A stretch of 45,375 nucleotides of DNA from a virus (Duplodnaviria > Caudoviricetes): positions 1 through 45,375 of the IMG/VR virus record IMGVR_UViG_3300022876_000180; one strand, given 5' to 3'. Below the pieces are notes generated by a model. The model worked only from the letters and a program-made list of their open reading frames with translations. It did not search any database and was not told where the DNA came from. Below are positions 6,546 to 44,888 of this stretch, piece after piece. Position 1 is the first letter of the stretch. The number at the start of each line of letters is the position of its first letter. The translations under genes and the position numbers were made by a program.

Positions 6546-6574
6546 TTGCTTTTGTGGTGGCCATGGGCTATAAA
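6546..6574 (+). promoter_or_regulatory. sigma70 promoter for the RT cassette
   Basis: TTGCTT-17 bp-TATAAA. Confidence 0.6.
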
Positions 6575-6584
6575 ATAGGCAAGG

Positions 6585-6616
6585 TCGGGTGTACCACCCG
6601 AGCGCGCTCTTTAAAA
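6585..6616 (+). promoter_or_regulatory. boxB-like hairpin plus boxA antitermination element
   Basis: tcgggtg-tac-cacccga hairpin, then GCTCTTTAAAA (6606-6616), matching the boxA consensus GYTCTTTAANA. Confidence 0.6.
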
Positions 6617-6639
6617 TTCATCGATAGAAATAATCAGGC

Positions 6640-6962
6640 TTGCAGTTGTGATTGGTAAAACAATCAGCTTTGGGTTCTACAAAGCTTTATCCGCCACCCG
6701 TATGTCCGCCCTGATCGAGTTCACAGATTACTGCTTATGCAGACCTGTGGGTTAAGCCTCAACGTTTCTTAGCGCTGAGTGCAGAGATTACTCTCCGTCA
6801 CCGTAAAGATTTAACGTTAACGATACTCGTTGACGGTTTGTCCTAACGCTGACCGAAGAGCAGCCACCGTTGGCCAATCTGGCTAACGCTAACTTAGATC
6901 AATAGGGTGAACAATGCGGCGGACGGGCTTATTAAACTTCGTTTAATAAGCCAGAACTGCGA
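6640..6962 (+). ncRNA. Putative retron-like msr-msd ncRNA
   Basis: Closing inverted repeat ttgcagtt (6640-6647)/aactgcga (6955-6962); unpaired G6648; two short hairpins (6649-6666, 6667-6685); large enclosed domain (6704-6924); perfect 12-bp hairpin 6926-6952; upstream of a retron-type RT. Confidence 0.6.
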
Positions 6963-7038
6963 TTTGTATGGACACCTTCATGTTCCTTTCGGCCTGAAAG
7001 CTTCGCGGCGGGGCAATCCAGCCCGTGAGGATATATCG

Positions 7039-7293
7039 ATGCAAAAATTTAAGAGTACTCAACGTTCTGCGTTGAAAAGTAAGCAAGACAATGAAGGTGT
7101 TCGCGTTGTTAAAAAAGGCAAAGGGAAACCAAAATCTAAGGTTCCTTCAGAACGAGAGAAGAAAAGTAGTGCTTTTGAGAAGGTGAAAGGCATTGTTACT
7201 CGACTTTCGGTAATGTGGATCTATGATAATTGGTCCCTTATCCATGATAAGGCATCGTTTTGTATCGATGTTTTGATGGAGATTCTTAAATAA
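7039..7293 (+). CDS. 84-aa Lys-rich protein with hydrophobic/amphipathic C-terminus; candidate retron effector
   Basis: GAGGA RBS 7 nt before ATG 7039. The longer GTG start at 6907 runs through ncRNA hairpins and is unlikely. Confidence 0.65.
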   Translation: MQKFKSTQRSALKSKQDNEGVRVVKKGKGKPKSKVPSEREKKSSAFEKVKGIVTRLSVMWIYDNWSLIHDKASFCIDVLMEILK

Positions 7294-7327
7294 TGACGCA
7301 GCAAATCGCATCATCGAAATTTTAGAG

Positions 7328-7353
7328 GGCCCGCATGGTTGCGGGCCTTTTTT
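7328..7353 (+). terminator. Intrinsic terminator between small ORF and RT
   Basis: ggcccgca-tggt-tgcgggcc followed by T6. Confidence 0.75.
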
Positions 7354-7366
7354 ATGGATATTAAAA

Positions 7367-8395
7367 ATGACTACGGCAAGATATACAAGGAAGCCTGTTT
7401 ATAGTCTGAAAGCTCTCGGGCTAATGCTGGGAGAGAGCTCTGAGTTGCTTTTAAAGTTAGGTGCAAGTAGTAGTGGGCTTTACCGTGAAGTTCTGCAGCA
7501 GAAAAAAGACAAGTCGGTAAGGGTGACCTTTGATGCTTTTCAGCCATTGAAAAGGGTTCAGAGAAAAATAGTAGACAGATTGCTGATCCATGTTAGTTAT
7601 CCCAGCTATCTTCATGGTGGTATTCGGGATGTAGACTCTCCCAGAAGTCCTCTTTCAAACGCTCGGACACACCTCGGGGCAAAATCAATCGCACTGCAGG
7701 ATATAACTAATTTTTTTCCATCTATCTCAAGAGATAAGGTGAAAAATATTTTTACGGGGTTCTTTGGTTTTGGATCGGGAGTATCTGAGCTACTGTCGTT
7801 ACTTGTGACGAAGGATGGCTTTGTTCCGCAGGGAGCAAGTACTAGCAGCTATTTGGCAAATCTTGTGTTTTGGGATGTTGAGCCTCGTTTAGTAGGCTGG
7901 ATCCATAGTCAAAATCTTATATATACCCGCTTTGCTGATGATATTACGATTTCGTCGAAAGTATTTGTCAGCGATGAACAGTGGGCGGAGATAATAAGTA
8001 AGGTTACAGGGATGCTCGCTAGTAAAGGCTTCAAGCAAAAGAGAACTAAGTTGCATGTTCTAAAAAAAGGGCAAGCACTGACAAAAGGGGATAAGCCCGA
8101 GCCGCTCGTTATTACAGGCTTAGGTATATCAGGGAGTTCTACTGGTGTGATAAAGGCTGAGCGGCATAAAATCAGGGCTGCTGTAAGGCAGTTTGAGGTC
8201 GCGATAGAGTCTGGGAGTAGCTTTGATGAGGTAGCTCATCTTTATCATAGTGCAATGGGGCGAGTGGGGCGCATGCTTGCATGCGGACAGCCATCGGGCT
8301 TTGAGTTCAAAAAGCGTCTGAATGAAGCCAAAAGGCTAGGTCAGATTTCATTGATAGATAAATATATCGCTGAAACGAGTACCGTAAGTGATTAA
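7367..8395 (+). CDS. Retron-type reverse transcriptase (342 aa, no fused effector)
   Basis: NARTH (retron NAxxH, aa 98-102), DITNFFPSI, PQGASTS, YTRFADD (FADD at aa 189-192), ITG (VTG-like, aa 249-251). Confidence 0.9.
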   Translation: MTTARYTRKPVYSLKALGLMLGESSELLLKLGASSSGLYREVLQQKKDKSVRVTFDAFQPLKRVQRKIVDRLLIHVSYPSYLHGGIRDVDSPRSPLSNARTHLGAKSIALQDITNFFPSISRDKVKNIFTGFFGFGSGVSELLSLLVTKDGFVPQGASTSSYLANLVFWDVEPRLVGWIHSQNLIYTRFADDITISSKVFVSDEQWAEIISKVTGMLASKGFKQKRTKLHVLKKGQALTKGDKPEPLVITGLGISGSSTGVIKAERHKIRAAVRQFEVAIESGSSFDEVAHLYHSAMGRVGRMLACGQPSGFEFKKRLNEAKRLGQISLIDKYIAETSTVSD

Positions 8396-8399
8396 GAAG

Positions 8400-9047
8400 T
8401 TAGAGGCTAGAGATCTTCCAACGAGCTCTACCACAGATGCTCCATTCTTCATCTAATTTAATTATTCTTTCTGGCCAGTCAGGATTCAATGCATATAGGA
8501 ACTGTTCATTTCCCTCTTGTCTAAGCTGTTTCAGAGTTGCAGCTTGATCTCTTGTTCTTTTCGCCGCGACGAAATGACCTGGAAGTGACTCAAGAGATGG
8601 ATCAATGACAATCATGTCACCTTCAAGAAATTTCGGCTCCATGCTCATTCCTTCGACTCTGAGAATGAATGCTTTAGGTCCCACTGGGCCTGGGGCTTCA
8701 ATCCATTCCTCTGCATCCCGAGAATCGAAACTGCCTTGAGGTTCACACCACGCTCCAGCTGCGATCGACCCAATTACTGGTAGTTTTCTACCTGTATGGC
8801 TGAGAATTGTGGTGTTGCTGAACTCGTCCAGGCCAAATGGCATGTCGAGATAGCCATTGTGAAGATTTAGAGCAACCTCTAACTCGCGGGCAATCTGATC
8901 ACCAATTCCTTTCGTGGGGTTCTTCCCCCCAAAAGCACTTACCTGTGCTGGTGCCTTCCCAAGCAAATCAGCAATGTCAGTAAGCCGCAGCTTCTTTTCA
9001 GCGAGCACGCGACGGAAATTCTGGAGGCGGGTATCTGAAATTTTCAT
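8400..9047 (-). CDS. cI: CI-like repressor (HTH + S24 peptidase)
   Basis: N-terminal HTH, AG cleavage site (IAAG), GMSM serine and TLKQL lysine. Confidence 0.9.
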   Translation of the reverse strand: MKISDTRLQNFRRVLAEKKLRLTDIADLLGKAPAQVSAFGGKNPTKGIGDQIARELEVALNLHNGYLDMPFGLDEFSNTTILSHTGRKLPVIGSIAAGAWCEPQGSFDSRDAEEWIEAPGPVGPKAFILRVEGMSMEPKFLEGDMIVIDPSLESLPGHFVAAKRTRDQAATLKQLRQEGNEQFLYALNPDWPERIIKLDEEWSICGRARWKISSL

Positions 9048-9381: not shown

Positions 9382-9650
9382 AAAAAAGGCGGCCTATAGG
9401 CCGCCCAGTTCCTCCCGGCACGCACCACCACAGCGCTGTCGGGTCGCGATAAAGGTAGGCGGGCACACCACATGCGAACCGTCGACCTTTACCGCGCTTT
9501 CCAAGGCTCGGAAGCCTTGGGTTGCTGCCTTTCTCCACCACAGATAGGGCAGCTGTTGCGCCAGGGGTGAGCAACGGATGCTTGCCCCGGTACGGTGCCG
9601 GTGTCGGTCTTGCGGACCTAGCCGGCTTTTGGGCCCTTTCAGCCACGCGG
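9382..9650 (-). ncRNA. Putative structured antisense/small RNA with UGUGGUG loops
   Basis: Minus-strand terminator (ggcggcctataggccgcc + T6) at 9382-9405; several hairpins, some needing G-U pairs available only on the minus strand; possible extended -10 (TGaTACATT) near 9653-9661. Confidence 0.5.
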
Positions 9651-36182: not shown

Positions 36183-37043
36183 TTAATTTTCTCTGATTAG
36201 GTGCTTCAGTGATGGTAGTTTTGCGTCAAATAGTGCAGTCAATATAAGGCAGCTTTCCTGATACATCTTGTTTAGATAAACGTCATCTGAGAGGATTCCA
36301 TCGAAGTAGGTGCCATATGCGACTATATACATGTCTACGAAATCGTTGCGGAGTCTATCCGCACGTCTCTCGCGCAGCCCTCCATTTGCTGACCGATTAA
36401 TAATCATGAGGTAGCTGGCTAAGCAAGCCCTGAAGATGAAGGTGTTTGGAAGCTCGTCGTATGTCGGGCGTTTACGTCGAAATTGGAAATTTGAAAAAAC
36501 AGTGTTGGCTATAAAAAGTGTTGTCTGAACTATCTTGTTTATCATCTCTTTTGAATAGCTTCCTTGGTTGCGCAGGATTGCTCTTTCGTCTTTGCTATAT
36601 TCTTTTCCTAAGGATTCCAATGCATCACGCATTTTTCTGGATTCATCAAGCATTTTTTCAAGGTGTGCTTGGGCTAATTGGCCTCGCTCAAATATTTGCT
36701 GCTTTATATGATGGTCGCCTTCATTCGCTTTTTTTAGGAGGTTTATGTACTCAGGAAAGTCATTTGTTTGGGTGTGGTCGATCAGTCTTTTTTGCAGTCC
36801 TTTACATCTGCCGCTCTGTAGGCAGTTTTTTGCTGTCCCGCTTAATATGATGGCCTGATTTGGAAATAGTGATAAAATTGACATGGATTTTGTTATGCTG
36901 AATATATCACCCTTGTATGCCTCCAAAGCGATAAAGTCAGTTAGCACTGCTTTGTTTTTTTGGGACTTCGATAGATATTCGTGAAGTTTTGGTGATGTAA
37001 GTTGGTTGCTGTCTATGATTAGCTGCATGTGTTCGGTATCCAA
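36183..37043 (-). CDS. PIN-like protein (putative RNase), cargo
   Basis: IIDSN, ALE, NDFVD, GILSDD acidic pattern typical of PIN folds; AT-rich. Confidence 0.5.
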   Translation of the reverse strand: MDTEHMQLIIDSNQLTSPKLHEYLSKSQKNKAVLTDFIALEAYKGDIFSITKSMSILSLFPNQAIILSGTAKNCLQSGRCKGLQKRLIDHTQTNDFPEYINLLKKANEGDHHIKQQIFERGQLAQAHLEKMLDESRKMRDALESLGKEYSKDERAILRNQGSYSKEMINKIVQTTLFIANTVFSNFQFRRKRPTYDELPNTFIFRACLASYLMIINRSANGGLRERRADRLRNDFVDMYIVAYGTYFDGILSDDVYLNKMYQESCLILTALFDAKLPSLKHLIREN

Positions 37044-37083: not shown

Positions 37084-37767
37084 TTACAGTATCTTGGGCA
37101 GTAATAGTTCAGCCCCTTGATTTCTCGAATTTCCCACCTCTAACCCGATCTGATACCACTCGAAAACCTCAGTTGGCTCGCCTTGCAGCAGAGCTATTTG
37201 CTCCGCGCGAGCTTTCGATGTTGCTGGATCGAGCCATTCCCGAGCTAGTCGTGGAGCCAGCACCACAGGGCGCCGATCATGGATGTCGACCATACCTGCC
37301 TGGGCGTCGGCGGTGATGATAACGAACCCGTCGTGTTCGCCAGGGCCATGGTCAGCGTCAGGAAACCGGCCAATCGAGGCGCAGAGGCAGGGTGCCCCGT
37401 CCTTCCGGCGGATGAAGTAGGGCTGTTTCTTCGGCTCGCCTTCGTCGACCCACTCAAACCACCCATCGATAGGGCAAATCGCCCGATGCGGCCAGATCTC
37501 CCGGAAGAAGGGCCCGTGCGCGACCTTCTCAACCCGGGCATTTACCGGCGGTGCACGATCCTTGGCCCAGTGCGGCATCCATCCCCACCGCACCAGGTCG
37601 GCGTGCGGGCCGTCTTCGGCCTGATGGAGCAGAACGACCATCGTCGTCGGCGCAACGTTGTACCGGTCCAGGGGCTTGTTCTCGATCGACGACAGCCATT
37701 TGCCGTTGAGTCCAAGGACGTGGCAGTAGTCATCGATGTACCGGTACTGCGCGATCCTTCCGCACAT
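37084..37767 (-). CDS. SOS response-associated peptidase (SRAP family)
   Basis: MCGR, YNVAPT, NARVE, GWFEW, IHDRRP. Confidence 0.93.
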   Translation of the reverse strand: MCGRIAQYRYIDDYCHVLGLNGKWLSSIENKPLDRYNVAPTTMVVLLHQAEDGPHADLVRWGWMPHWAKDRAPPVNARVEKVAHGPFFREIWPHRAICPIDGWFEWVDEGEPKKQPYFIRRKDGAPCLCASIGRFPDADHGPGEHDGFVIITADAQAGMVDIHDRRPVVLAPRLAREWLDPATSKARAEQIALLQGEPTEVFEWYQIGLEVGNSRNQGAELLLPKIL

Positions 37768-38570: not shown

Positions 38571-40160
38571 TTAACCCGGCTGAGAAGTTGCTTCGTCTAG
38601 CTCGGTGTCGTTGGGGATATAGTCTTCATCTTTAGCGGTAGAGTTGTTTTCCAGCGAGGCGCCTACCAGCTCATCAAGACGGCGCTCAATAATGCGCACC
38701 ACTCTAGGGTCGGATACTTCATAGAGGAATGAAGGTTTACCTCCCAATTCGCCCGGGACAGATCCACTCTGCCGAGCCAAGCCCACATCTGTCCACTTAG
38801 TGATTTTGTTTCTTGCGCCTTGGGCACCAATCCTGAATGTGGATTGCACATCTTTGTTCAGGAAAGAGATTTTGCCTAGTCGATATACTTGGTGGAGGGT
38901 ATCTCTTTTGTACCAGGTTTGGATCGTCTCTTTAGCGTATTTATCTTGGGCTACTTCCACCGAGATCATGTCAATCTTTTGAGGTGCTTCTTCACCGCGC
39001 GCATCGTGTTCACGGAAGAGAGTATCCATCAAACGGATAAGCTCGCGAGGCGATCTTAACGACAGTCGGCAGAACTCACTAAAAATCGCTTTAGAATCAA
39101 TCCCGACTTCGAATATTCCTGAGAAATTCGTTTTACCGTTAGAGAAGAATTCGATTCTACGGTCCAGCATTTGCTGTAATTGCTCAGCTGTCCAAGCGAT
39201 TTTGGCGTTAGCGATTTTGTCGAGTCGAATCTTCAACTTATCGTTAAAGTGGTCTTCGACGTTACCCCATACGAAGAACATCCATGAAAAGCCATCGACT
39301 TCTAGGAGCTGAATGTTTGCCAGAAGAGGGTGGAGCAGACGAGCGGTTGCTTCCACTGAGTTATCGGTTTCGCTTGTTTCGTCGAGTTTGTCTACAAGGA
39401 CGCAAACACCCGAAAACCCAAAAGTTCGGCAAAGCTCTACCAATTTCGTGAGAATTGCTTTGGCTGTATTAGCTGAGTCGCCCACGAGGCTTGCCAAGAT
39501 ACGCTCGGTAGGGCCTTGAATGTCCAAGTCTTCGTCGACTTTGTTCTTCATGAAGGCTTGGAGAAGTCCAGAAAAAACTGCGCTCACCGAGCCCCATCTT
39601 TTACGGATCCAGATCTTACTCTTGGTGGTCCATGCACTCCCTAGCAATATAAAGGCTTCTGCAGTGGACGTCTCTCTATCCATTTCTGGAACGGATAAAT
39701 AAATGGCTTCTAGCAAGGCGAGTATCAAGGCCTTGTCATGTTTGTCGAGTTCTTTTAGGTAGGCTTCGCGATCAGCGTCCTCAAGGGAGGAAAGCCATGC
39801 GAATAGTTGTTCAATGATGAAGAACCCAGCAAGAGAACATATGTCTTTATCGCTTAATTGGCCTCGCTTAAATTTTGGAAGTATTTGAGCGAAGTCAGTA
39901 AGGTTGACTATGAATGGTTGCTGGTCTTCTGGGTTAAGAGTGGCGGCTTCCCACGCCTCTTTATAAACTGTAAGTCTTGTCGCACTTTTGCCAGCGCCTC
40001 GATCTCCGAACAGGATGAAAGAGCTCAATCCTAAAGAGCGCTGTGCGATCGTTTCAAGATATGGAGGGCGCACCGCGTACGCTGCGATTTCAGGTTCTTT
40101 CTCAGCGTTGTAGTGCTCGAAAGGGTTGCCCTTCAAGCCTAGACTTTTCGCGATGTTCAT
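38571..40160 (-). CDS. Standalone P-loop NTPase with probable C-terminal winged helix
   Basis: GNPF, GDRGAGKS Walker A, VLVDKLDE Walker B, SPRELI; AGGAG RBS before ATG 40160. Confidence 0.8.
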   Translation of the reverse strand: MNIAKSLGLKGNPFEHYNAEKEPEIAAYAVRPPYLETIAQRSLGLSSFILFGDRGAGKSATRLTVYKEAWEAATLNPEDQQPFIVNLTDFAQILPKFKRGQLSDKDICSLAGFFIIEQLFAWLSSLEDADREAYLKELDKHDKALILALLEAIYLSVPEMDRETSTAEAFILLGSAWTTKSKIWIRKRWGSVSAVFSGLLQAFMKNKVDEDLDIQGPTERILASLVGDSANTAKAILTKLVELCRTFGFSGVCVLVDKLDETSETDNSVEATARLLHPLLANIQLLEVDGFSWMFFVWGNVEDHFNDKLKIRLDKIANAKIAWTAEQLQQMLDRRIEFFSNGKTNFSGIFEVGIDSKAIFSEFCRLSLRSPRELIRLMDTLFREHDARGEEAPQKIDMISVEVAQDKYAKETIQTWYKRDTLHQVYRLGKISFLNKDVQSTFRIGAQGARNKITKWTDVGLARQSGSVPGELGGKPSFLYEVSDPRVVRIIERRLDELVGASLENNSTAKDEDYIPNDTELDEATSQPG

Positions 40161-40690
40161 TATGCTCCTATCCCTCGGAATCAAAGCTGTCAAAATAACA
40201 TCAAGTCTGGGAGAGGAAAAGCGGGTCGGTAGCGGCGATCTGTAGGCCGCTGAAAATTTTGAAAAACTGATTGGTACAAAATTGGTACGGATGATGAGGT
40301 AGCGCGCTGTAAACCTTGAAGGTAAAGAGCTCTAGGAAGAGGCATTGAGAGTGAATGGGACAAAAATAGGGTAAACCAGGCGCCAAACCACGCTGATCAT
40401 GCGTTTATGCACGCCGTCTAAATTTACCGCTTGCCCCAACGATTAAGGCTATTTGCCGTGCTCGAATCGACATACCCCCCCACAATCGGTGTGTCGCGGT
40501 AAAAAGACGCTTGAACGCTGGTATGCTTTGTGAGATATCTAAGGTCAGGTGCTGGTGGGCGCCTGCCGCTTGCACTGGCGAAGTCAAACACCACCTAGCT
40601 GTAGCGCAATCCCCCTCTTACATGTAGCACCTACCCAGGCGCCACGGTTAGCAAGCAATCGTAATTTTGGCGCCGCTCTGGAGTAGAGCT

Positions 40691-41308
40691 ATGAGTCAGT
40701 ACAGCTATATCAATCTCATCAAGCGCGAAGCAAAATCCTACGGTAAAGCTTATGGCATCCCCTTAGCTATGGCTCAGGAAAAAATTGCTCGGGATTCTGG
40801 CTTTGCACATTTTCATGAAATGGTTGCTGTCTCGAAATCGAATCCTAATGACCAACGTCTTATGATTCGAGCAGTAGGTCTCACAAACTTCAATGAGATT
40901 TTATTTGGCGACCCTATTTGGGGGGATTTGAATTTATTGGTTGAAGATGAGTTGAGTGGGCCTATTGCGGAAACAAATGCCGCAGGCTTCATTGTCGAGA
41001 ATCTGGAGGTGTACACTGCGAATTACGATGAGTCCAATGGCATAGCCACTCTTGAGGTCTACTTCGAATATCAAGGTGAACAAGATGAAGACCGCGTTTG
41101 GCATGGCGCCGGATTCTATATTCACGGTCAAATACAGTTGATTTTCCGGGATGGCTGGAGCTTGGTGGAGGATGATGCATTGCTCATAACCGAGTTCAAG
41201 ACTGACCAGGACCTGGATCACGAAATCGAAGCAGAACATCAGTATGAGGAATATCTGGCGTTACAGAAAAGCAATGGAAAACCTGCTTCCGATCCCTTTG
41301 AGTTTTAG
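40691..41308 (+). CDS. Hypothetical cargo protein (small helical N-domain + acidic C-domain)
   Basis: 205-aa ORF; LIKREAK..AQEKIARDSGF..F.E N-terminus. Confidence 0.7.
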   Translation: MSQYSYINLIKREAKSYGKAYGIPLAMAQEKIARDSGFAHFHEMVAVSKSNPNDQRLMIRAVGLTNFNEILFGDPIWGDLNLLVEDELSGPIAETNAAGFIVENLEVYTANYDESNGIATLEVYFEYQGEQDEDRVWHGAGFYIHGQIQLIFRDGWSLVEDDALLITEFKTDQDLDHEIEAEHQYEEYLALQKSNGKPASDPFEF

Positions 41309-43760: not shown

Positions 43761-44888
43761 ATGGGATCTATCACCGTTCGCAAGCGGAAGGACGGGTCTG
43801 TTGCGTACAACGCCCAGGTCCGGATCATGCAGAAGGGCGTGACAGTTTATCAGGAAAGCCAAACATTCGACCGCAAGACCACGGCCCAGGCCTGGATCAA
43901 GCGCGTTGAAACGGAAATGGCGGAGCCTGGGGCAATCGCGAGGGCTTCCAGGAAGGGAGTGACGCTCAAGGAAATGATCGCTCGCTACCTCGATGAGTAC
44001 GAAAAGCTCCGGCCGCTGGGCAAGACCAAGCGCGCAACGCTGAAGGCAATCGGCGATAGCTGGCTGGGACTGGTAGAAGATAAGGATCTAACCAGCCAGA
44101 AACTGGTCGAGTACGCCAATGAGCGAATGCTGAAAGCTGGTGTCCAGCCGCAGACTGTTGGTAACGATCTCGCCCACTTAGGGGCCGTTCTGTCCGTGGC
44201 CAGGCCTGCCTGGGGCTATGACATTGATCCGATGGCTATGCCAGATGCACGGAAGGTGCTGCGCAAGATGGGGGCGGTGTCTCGGAGCAACGAACGCGAC
44301 CGCCGACCGACCATGGAAGAGCTGGATACTCTGCTGAAGTATTACGAGCAGATGCGCGACAGGAGGAAGCAGGAAATCGATATGGTGCGCATGATCGGCT
44401 TCGCGCTTTTTTCCACTCGCAGGCAGGAGGAAATTACCCGTATTCGCTGGGATAGCATGGATGAAGCCAAGCAGATGGTTCTGATCACGGACATGAAGAA
44501 CCCCGGCCAGAAGTACGGCAACGACGTTTGGTGTCACCTGCCTGATGAGGCCTGGCGAATCATGATGTCGATGCCGCGGGTGGCCGATGAGGTTTTTCCT
44601 TACGTCGCAAAGTCGGTGTCTGCCTCGTTCACCAGGGCCTGTCTGTTCCTGGAAATTGAGGACCTGCATTTTCACGACCTTCGCCATGACGGCATCAGTC
44701 GACTGTTTGAAATGGGGTGGGATATCCCGAAAGTGGCCTCTGTTTCCGGTCACCGGGATTGGAACTCGATGCGGCGCTATACGCACCTGAGGGGGAATGG
44801 CGATCCATATAAGGACTGGCCATGGTTGGAGAGGATAATATCGGGCCCCACGATCGAGGCCCAGAAGAGATCAGCAAACGCTTCGTAG
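43761..44888 (+). CDS. int: Second dusA-associated tyrosine integrase
   Basis: Same catalytic motifs and long identical blocks shared with 1..1095. Confidence 0.93.
   Translation: MGSITVRKRKDGSVAYNAQVRIMQKGVTVYQESQTFDRKTTAQAWIKRVETEMAEPGAIARASRKGVTLKEMIARYLDEYEKLRPLGKTKRATLKAIGDSWLGLVEDKDLTSQKLVEYANERMLKAGVQPQTVGNDLAHLGAVLSVARPAWGYDIDPMAMPDARKVLRKMGAVSRSNERDRRPTMEELDTLLKYYEQMRDRRKQEIDMVRMIGFALFSTRRQEEITRIRWDSMDEAKQMVLITDMKNPGQKYGNDVWCHLPDEAWRIMMSMPRVADEVFPYVAKSVSASFTRACLFLEIEDLHFHDLRHDGISRLFEMGWDIPKVASVSGHRDWNSMRRYTHLRGNGDPYKDWPWLERIISGPTIEAQKRSANAS

Follow-up and report, generated by a model that had tools for sequence, protein, structure and literature searches.

This locus raises the question of how a retron that has no HTH gene might keep the small protein encoded next to its reverse transcriptase (RT) from being made. 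The window, i.e., the whole stretch of DNA analyzed (45,375 nt; IMG/VR record IMGVR_UViG_3300022876_000180, Caudoviricetes), is by gene content a temperate phage or prophage, with family matches for integrase, cI, cII, primase, terminase, tail, and lysis genes. The retron is inserted between the early leftward operon and cI of this prophage and consists of about 460 nt without a conserved open reading frame (ORF), an 84-amino-acid ORF (positions 7039 to 7293), a 73-nt gap containing a hairpin, and the RT gene (7367 to 8395), all on the plus strand, as are the RNA features described below. It is a two-gene retron of the Type VI clade, made up of an RNA, an 84-amino-acid small protein, and an RT, without an HTH gene; by analogy, it is likely an anti-phage system, with a predicted role in defense. 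The RNA likely prevents synthesis of the small predicted toxin until DNA produced by the retron itself unlocks it.

The genes around the retron are those of the prophage. The cI-like repressor gene (8400 to 9047, minus strand; family matches) is context only and lies outside the system; cI stands beside the RT in only 7 of 46 loci, and the neighboring genes vary among loci. Two similar integrase genes lie one at each end of the record (1 to 1095 and 43761 to 44888). Three ORFs located 3' of the lysis genes (36183 to 37043, 38571 to 40193, and 40667 to 41308) are cargo-like, with no or weak family matches, among them one weak match to an ORC-CDC6-like ATPase, and an SOS-response peptidase gene (37084 to 37767) adjoins them. 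No Red-like recombinase, exonuclease, or Gam was found among the 46 window ORFs scanned, many of which had no match at all. In the cro-cII gap (9406 to 9577), RNA contigs were present in two of four runs (9425 to 9577, at high depth, and 9406 to 9576), and a third run contained a 41-base partial RNA piece.

The RT (342 amino acids) was placed by PADLOC matches (RT_VI, 7.5e-68; RT_V, 2.4e-63; RT_IV, 6.7e-49) and by trees. Its motifs N98-A-x-x-H102, F189-A-D-D, and T250-G251, which we take to be the retron motifs NAXXH, the catalytic DD, and a VTG-like motif, are invariant or nearly so in 20 homologs. Upstream of the RT lies a structured msr-msd-like RNA with covarying hairpins and a long variable stem, which marks the locus as a retron; the named relatives of the RT are from Pseudomonas. 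In the RT trees, among whose taxa no type IV RT was identified, the window RT grouped with SP-HTH-RT loci and type V fell outside, with support for Type VI of 93/97 and 92/91, below the star threshold. The HTH-less RTs formed one clade (100/99 in one tree and 99/93 in another). All 10 HTH loci were joined together in the first careful tree (90/98); a quick tree placed the HTH-less clade beside three HTH loci (97), a join that received only 86/66 in a careful rerun, and the trees disagree on whether the HTH was ancestrally absent or was lost from the clade. Among the features of Type VI, the clade has an RT in the Type VI branch of clade 3, and neither the Cro/C1-type HTH (cluster 2_1) nor a known SP cluster was found in it. 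The closest loci with an HTH share the clade's RNA motifs and fold-back.

A profile of 10 retron HTHs found nothing in the 45-kb window and, three weak downstream matches apart (1e-7 to 0.006), nothing in 74 related loci with RT identity of at least 47% (a few of which lack upstream DNA); held-out HTHs were recovered at 1e-12 to 1e-42. Five host genomes gave only generic partial matches for an HTH acting in trans, as did control genomes. We rejected cI and cro as substitutes, since the neighbors differ among loci and neither protein matches HTH_VI. Because no cognate HTH was found in the window, the 74 loci, or the five host genomes, no known protein antitoxin is available. Type V retrons combine an RT with a cold-shock protein, according to the accessible text of Mestre et al. 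2020 (PMC7736814); the cold-shock gene was matched in none of 17 clade loci and in 4 type V loci, and in the window cI, not a cold-shock gene, follows the RT.

The clade is common in its genus. RT_VI gave 57 matches in 56 of 401 Pseudomonas genomes, the center genome being a clade member, and the best 30 of these 57 loci comprised 16 loci of this clade, 8 with an HTH, 4 of type V, and 2 unclassed. A single-protein scan of genome contigs found nothing, nor did phage records. A clade named cl3897 occurs mainly in Pseudomonas, as stated in the accessible part of the Sen3 preprint (bioRxiv 10.64898/2026.04.27.721009); by description only, it may be this clade or the short-SP HTH lineage described below, and three supplementary files of PMC10849725 contained no match for Retron-Psp1 or cl3897. 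Two further loci combine a small ORF and an RT without an HTH: one (L121:2260-2478) is sister to the clade (100/98), and the other (L165:2523-2750) falls among HTH-bearing loci (98/90), a placement that suggests a separate HTH loss. Another Pseudomonas lineage (L131-L134, L136, L137, L143, and L146) has a strong HTH_VI match, small proteins of 54 to 61 amino acids that are basic and then hydrophobic and do not match SP_VI, and RTs whose long branch falls outside both type V and type VI. A search for the fold-back described below in 7 loci of this short-SP, HTH-bearing lineage found it in none of them.

An ORF of 78 to 86 amino acids ends about 70 to 85 nt before the RT in 46 of 46 loci. In the window, the small protein (84 amino acids, 7039 to 7293) has a basic, predicted disordered N-terminal half and two predicted helices (residues 38 to 63 and 65 to 83), in a low-confidence model (pLDDT 64, pTM 0.26). 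It had no Pfam, PHROG, SP_VI, or PDB match, and a fold search was empty; none of 45 small-protein members matched the SP_VI models, and profile comparison with helix-bundle SPs and short SPs gave probabilities under 1%. We found 77 relatives, the named ones all hypothetical or mislabelled, from Pseudomonadaceae or metagenomes. There is no clear transmembrane segment, a 19-residue hydropathy of at least 1.6 being reached by 2 of 46 small proteins. The protein is presumed, by analogy, to be a toxin; because homology to tested toxins is not detectable, this presumption comes from its position in the locus. A longer ORF of 128 amino acids from GTG 6907 was rejected, as upstream starts vary and only AUG 7039 is conserved with an RBS. 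The most conserved protein motif (residues 15 to 23; 7081 to 7105) coincides with RNA helices f and g (see below) and may for that reason reflect a constraint on the RNA rather than on the protein.

The original prediction named four pairings, all of which are present in the sequence: a fold-back that loops out the ORF (helix a; 6958 to 6967, termed IR1, with 7301 to 7310, termed IR2), which has nine Watson-Crick pairs and one G-U pair and begins 8 nt past the ORF stop at 7293; an 8-bp helix b (6640 to 6647 with 6955 to 6962), which shares 6958 to 6962 with helix a; an RBS hairpin (helix c; 7001 to 7008 with 7023 to 7030, including two G-U pairs); and helix d, in which an anti-AUG arm (6619 to 6626) forms eight Watson-Crick pairs with 7034 to 7041 and thereby spans the AUG (7039 to 7041). 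In one sequence such pairings are not above chance, because among 60 dinucleotide shuffles of 6581 to 7354 long-range helices of 10 bp or more with no more than one G-U pair arose in 68% and all-Watson-Crick 8-bp long-range helices in 95%. Covariation was scored in 46 loci less than 95% identical to one another (alignment A2), selected from 69 loci with RT identity of at least 47% and more than 900 nt upstream. Helix a was 99.3% paired (3 two-sided pairs, 21 cells) and helix d 92.1% paired (5 two-sided pairs, 41 cells), and both exceeded all shuffles on cells and on score (0 of 500 as high); slid controls were 18 to 58% paired. At locus L049, which has a GTG start, the anti-AUG arm is altered to match.

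Helix b and helix c fared differently. Helix b, which had been proposed as the priming stem, was 99.5% paired, with one-sided changes only and no two-sided change; it formed in 10 of 24 nascent folds (see below), and the base directly after it is G in 41 of 46 loci. Helix b is thus at most a candidate for the priming stem, and what stands of the proposed overlap between the fold-back and the priming stem is the shared segment 6958 to 6962. As predicted, GAGG (7027 to 7030) of the RBS lies inside stem c; A7031 lies outside it, and the supposed GCAA tetraloop (7013 to 7016) belongs to an inner stem. A hairpin is present here in the local fold of 46 of 46 loci (median z of −1.6; z below −2 in 17 of 46), with a register and loop that vary, and the exact eight pairs fail in the A2 columns.

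Three more helices emerged: e (6634 to 6640 with 6991 to 6997; 100% paired, 2 two-sided pairs), f (6971 to 6980 with 7092 to 7101, inside the ORF; 6 two-sided pairs, 70 cells), and g (7103 to 7108 with 7294 to 7299; 1 two-sided pair, with 3 changes per side on the RT tree), whose 3' strand closes the arm containing the remainder of the ORF. When 640 well-filled columns were scanned without bias, 123 helices of at least 4 bp were returned. Ordered by two-sided cells, helix f came out on top, followed by an msr-like hairpin, d, a 5' stem-loop, a, and e, with g ranking lower. Helix f, the best covarying helix, was not part of the original prediction, nor were the anti-SD and the 7-nt repeat described below. 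When changes were mapped on the RT tree (44 of the 46 loci, those with full RTs), they recurred at 6961/7307 (4 and 3), 6622/7038 (3 and 3), and 6624/7036 (2 and 2); most two-sided changes of helix f were single events. Two crossing helix sets are therefore conserved by compensating changes in the same RNA. Two other pairings seen in the window, 6606 to 6618 with 7318 to 7330 and a second partner of the anti-AUG arm (6619 to 6626 with 7263 to 7270), were absent among the conserved helices and were discarded. Because the 16 clade loci of the Pseudomonas genus sample are at least 98.7% identical to loci already in the set, that sample provides no independent test of covariation.

We then compared the predicted folds of 24 of the 46 loci for RNA cut 45 nt past the AUG and for full-length RNA. 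The cut RNA formed d in 23 loci, e in 20, and b in 10, whereas the full-length RNA formed a in 18, f in 21, and g in 20, with d, e, and b remaining in 3, 2, and 2. The full-length helix set was favored in 22 of 24 loci, by a median of 7 kcal/mol. Helices d and e cross a and f; strict exclusion applies to a versus b only, through their five shared bases. In the full-length fold, the RBS is held by an anti-SD (6982 to 6988), a duplex of −4 kcal/mol or stronger in 46 of 46 loci, as computed with no shuffle control. Both predicted folds hide the ribosome site, the nascent fold more tightly (predicted opening energy in the window of 17.7 kcal/mol, versus 10.9 kcal/mol in the folded-back full-length RNA). 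The fold-back is hence not itself the lock, and on these modeled energies it would mark a mature, less tightly locked form of the RNA. Of the RNA switch that had been predicted, conserved alternative folds that sequester the RBS and AUG are borne out, and the notion that the fold-back is the tighter lock is not. Type I toxin mRNAs such as those of hok/sok silence a small toxin ORF by means of metastable hairpins in the nascent transcript together with a fold-back of the 3' end onto the 5' end. Nascent hairpins and such a fold-back over a small ORF are common to both; here control would be tied to a retron RT, and the protein is without a clear transmembrane segment.

From its 5' end, the putative hybrid RNA (6581 to 7316), which would unite the retron template, a riboregulator, and the small-protein coding sequence, can be read as follows. 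It is conserved and covarying in the 46 loci and appears in RNA contigs, and no Rfam family reached the gathering threshold over it. A weak promoter candidate was read by eye (6546 to 6574; −35 at 6546 to 6551, −10 at 6569 to 6574, 17-nt spacer), and transcription may start near 6581; a promoter consensus scan gave no site at 6546 to 6574. A 5' stem-loop (6585 to 6601; 5 two-sided pairs, 31 cells) is the counterpart of the Sen3 5' stem-loop, which is needed for defense according to the accessible text (bioRxiv 10.64898/2026.04.27.721009). After the anti-AUG arm come the 5' arms of stem e, which covaries, and helix b, which does not (together 6634 to 6647), and two short msr-like hairpins supported by local folds and the helix scan (6650 to 6665 and 6666 to 6686). 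Candidates for the branching G are G6642 after stem e (present in 46 of 46 loci), G6650 after helix b (invariant), and G7316 after IR2, where a G lies 6 to 8 nt 3' of IR2 in 46 of 46 loci. The predicted long stem-loop domain (6690 to 6924), poorly alignable and of variable length among homologs, is likely the msd template; it contains copy 1 of a 7-nt direct repeat (6916 to 6922), predicted to be mostly paired, and is followed by a predicted hairpin (6926 to 6952) that the scan for conserved helices also returned. Next are IR1, with its bases common to helix b, and the segment 6971 to 6988, which carries the 5' arm of helix f (covariation) and then the anti-SD (duplex energy).

The riboregulator (7000 to 7030) is predicted to form either the long RBS hairpin of the nascent RNA or a short hairpin (7000 to 7014) in the full-length RNA, where repeat copy 2 (7005 to 7011) sits at the apex. 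The RBS (7027 to 7031) has a GGA core before the start codon that is conserved in homologs. Downstream of IR2, a G+C-rich hairpin with a U run (7324 to 7354) was read from sequence and fold; it occupies the spot where related loci begin their HTH gene, and in homologs the hairpin is seen, with the U run often missing. A terminator scan listed neither this hairpin nor anything else at the expected place 3' of the small ORF.

Assembled RNA offers a weak hint at such a transcript. The stretch was present in 24 soil RNA runs, many at a share of 0.35 to 0.38, which corresponds to the size of the RNA element. In all eight runs examined, chosen for containing the stretch and possibly from one campaign, contigs span the template and the ORF, starting at 6590 to 6611 and ending at 7309 (four runs), 7311, 7316, 7297, and 7652; in six of eight the contig thus stops at 7309 to 7316, the edge of IR2. 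These contigs, which carry no strand, end, or DNA-control information, hint weakly at a stable RNA, about 720 nt long, whose 3' end lies at the fold-back and not at the hairpin. Contigs skip the RT in seven of eight runs, which we do not use as evidence. One run has an extra A at 7501, within a stretch of A's near the start of the RT gene (7498 to 7505); it could stem from misassembly, from slippage, or from a difference between strains.

The direct repeat suggests how DNA could act on this RNA, as DNA reverse transcribed from copy 1 could base pair with copy 2. A repeat of at least 7 nt is shared in 44 of the 46 loci, and cognate pairs are longer than swapped ones (7.50 versus 7.25 ± 0.08; 0 of 1,000), with relatedness left in the comparison. 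Both copies change together in distant families: 13 of 13 distant loci have a repeat at like positions with other sequence in both copies (single-locus P values of 0.007 to 0.14), and in a wider set that includes most of these 13, 23 of 28 have a repeat of at least 7 nt. Simple toehold opening of the intact RNA failed in silico: with the repeat blocked in full-length or nascent fragments, a drop in opening energy of more than 1 kcal/mol was seen at a single locus of 21, and the median went up, from 8.9 to 10.8 kcal/mol. Removal of the upstream RNA (before 6991) in the window lowered the opening energy by itself from 10.9 to about 8.7 kcal/mol, and blocking the repeat as well took it from 8.6 to 5.3 kcal/mol (control, 9.2). 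In this two-key test, the drop exceeded 2 kcal/mol in 11 of 46 loci versus 0 of 46 with control blocks (35 of 46 stayed under 2), and in 6 of 21 with a longer fragment. The effect is modest and depends on priming at stem e. The 7-nt repeat matches the msDNA key proposed for Vpa2 and, by that analogy, is likely the key to translation of the small protein.

The idea of a switch in Type VI retrons has already been published, for Vpa2 and, as the IR1-IR2 stem, for Sen3. The predicted coupling of reverse transcription to effector translation has been demonstrated for the related Retron-Vpa2, whose preprint (bioRxiv 10.1101/2025.10.22.683967), in its accessible text, reports a three-armed hybrid RNA that folds back at its 3' end, hides the RBS and AUG, and contains 7-nt repeats; msDNA is needed for translation and induces it when supplied in trans, and the HTH represses reverse transcription, its mutation being toxic. 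By covariation and predicted folds, the RNA described here likewise has a three-arm fold with a 3' fold-back and with its RBS and AUG in stems. The two systems share an msr-msd and a small-protein ORF, which here too are probably carried on one RNA, as well as three arms that radiate from a central node, an inverted-repeat 3' fold-back, and 7-nt direct repeats, and their RTs belong to one clade. In contrast to Vpa2, the present locus has no HTH, a longer RNA (about 720 to 770 versus 470 nt), a longer protein (84 versus 55 amino acids), and a hairpin that separates the RNA from the RT; the comparison is with the description of Vpa2, not by sequence alignment. Retron-Sen3 (Type VI cl2075) has a long-range IR1-IR2 stem around its ORF, an alternative conformation, and compensatory changes, and makes SP and ssDNA constitutively, the HTH being a post-translational antitoxin (bioRxiv 10.64898/2026.04.27.721009, accessible text). 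With Sen3 our locus shares a 5' stem-loop before the 5' inverted repeat, a fold that hides the RBS, the IR1-IR2 stem, and selection for structure inside the ORF; unlike Sen3, it has no HTH, and its small protein matches neither the SP_VI models nor helix-bundle SPs. The same text gives an HTH for about 78% of Type VI entries, so that HTH-less entries are counted in it but go undescribed. Our literature search, with most subscription literature outside its coverage, returned no HTH-free Type VI system and no small ORF in type V retrons. New here are a Pseudomonas-centered clade of HTH-less RTs, an unrelated small-protein family, and covariation for both folds.

We consider it probable, with moderate rather than high confidence, that the conserved alternative helix sets prevent translation of the presumed toxin until reverse-transcribed DNA builds up, probably in the course of phage infection, and unlocks the ribosome site through the 7-nt repeat in the manner of Vpa2. 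The gene order, the absence of the HTH, the covariation of both helix sets, the repeat, and the placement of the RT are observed; the sequence of events would be as follows. During transcription, 6619 to 6626 would fold onto the AUG and 7001 to 7008 onto the RBS, a tight lock that would block coupled translation. Once 7092 to 7310 is made, helices f and g and the fold-back would give the three-arm RNA, in which the anti-SD holds the RBS and repeat copy 2 moves to a hairpin apex, and a stable, armed RNA of about 720 to 770 nt would accumulate. As in Vpa2, host nucleases would keep msDNA low, and phage recombination proteins or RecBCD inhibition would protect it, so that it rises. Two keys might then turn together: RT and RNase H would strip the upstream RNA strands, and msDNA would pair with repeat copy 2. 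The small protein would finally arrest the infected cell.

Two points weigh against this model by analogy. Priming at stem e is required, but the accessible Vpa2 text suggests an msDNA start only about 23 nt beyond the long stem (bioRxiv 10.1101/2025.10.22.683967), and in Sen3, where these two folds also occur, the small protein is nonetheless produced constitutively, under post-translational control. The latter, like the failure of repeat blocking to open the intact RNA in silico, would fit an RNA that allows low, constant translation, with the small protein neutralized afterwards by a complex of RT, RNA, and msDNA and with the folds merely damping expression and stabilizing the RNA. The neutralizer in Sen3 is the HTH, however, which is absent from this clade; here there are three distinct conserved elements that conceal the RBS or AUG, and the repeat is kept in nearly every locus. 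We regard such post-translational control as unlikely, if deserving of some weight. Decidedly unlikely, in our judgment, is a fold-back that serves as a brake on or primer of reverse transcription and as a 3' stabilizer, with RT and RNase H removing the anti-AUG and anti-SD strands while msDNA pairing stays idle. The overlap of IR1 with helix b, the contig ends near IR2, the invariable G 3' of IR2, the likening of the fold-back helix to a1/a2 by the Vpa2 authors (bioRxiv 10.1101/2025.10.22.683967, accessible text), and the lowered opening energy upon upstream RNA removal alone all agree with it, but the co-changing repeat copies are left unexplained, and in Vpa2 msDNA made in trans induces translation.

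It is also conceivable, though very unlikely, that there is no switch, that a, d, e, f, and g coexist in one RT-bound pseudoknotted RNA, and that helix b is unreal. No base of d or e is also used by a, f, or g, helix b has no two-sided change, and nested folding programs are unable to show such a structure. Two 10-bp helices would, however, have to cross two others, nascent and full-length folding sort the helix sets cleanly, and the RBS and 7000 to 7014 each have two alternative partners. That the pairings are chance complementarity in a structured RNA is almost certainly wrong: shuffles of the single sequence do yield helices of the same size in most cases, but two-sided covariation, unmatched by any of the 500 shuffles or by the slid controls, already refutes chance for a, d, e, and f, helix b excepted.

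Related RNA features extend to type V. In eight type V loci (L096:1407-1592, L123:1153-1329, L124:2259-2465, L129:1167-1346, L149:1245-1427, L156, L158, and L159), a small ORF of 59 to 69 amino acids with a hydrophobic C-terminal part lies between the ncRNA and the RT; it is unannotated in the plasmid record of L129. A cold-shock gene was seen after the RT in seven of eight, and L124, cut off within the RT, was placed by RNA motifs. These loci resemble the clade in their sister RT clade, the 5' stem-loop motif and a 7- to 9-nt direct repeat (both present in each), the small ORF before the RT, and related helices; they differ in having the cold-shock gene after the RT and in the sequence of the repeat and the order of the helices. 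Two-sided pairs number 11 in a 13-bp helix that reaches into the ORF and 6 in a 7-bp helix (n = 8, no tree control), and a fold-back of at least 10 bp past the ORF stop was found in 5 of 8 by script and in 2 more in minimum-energy folds. Tentatively, and with somewhat less than even credence, we suggest that types V and VI share an ancestral core, an RNA lock opened by an msDNA key, to which the HTH and the cold-shock protein were added; in the Pseudomonas clade, a stripped version with an unrelated toxin, folding of the RNA would by itself do the work of the protein antitoxin, and in type V retrons such as Sen1 a small toxin encoded before the RT would have escaped notice.

In both Type VI retrons studied, the HTH is essential and acts in two capacities, and this obscures the answer to the question of how translation is switched on by msDNA. 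A natural and common HTH-free version, as found in Pseudomonas, is a clean system for that question, and the covariation map gives the exact mutations. The clade is missed by models that expect an SP and an HTH. If the model is true, the locus would be a minimal ssDNA-gated translation switch, and the small ORF of type V could reassign the effector of a textbook retron type.
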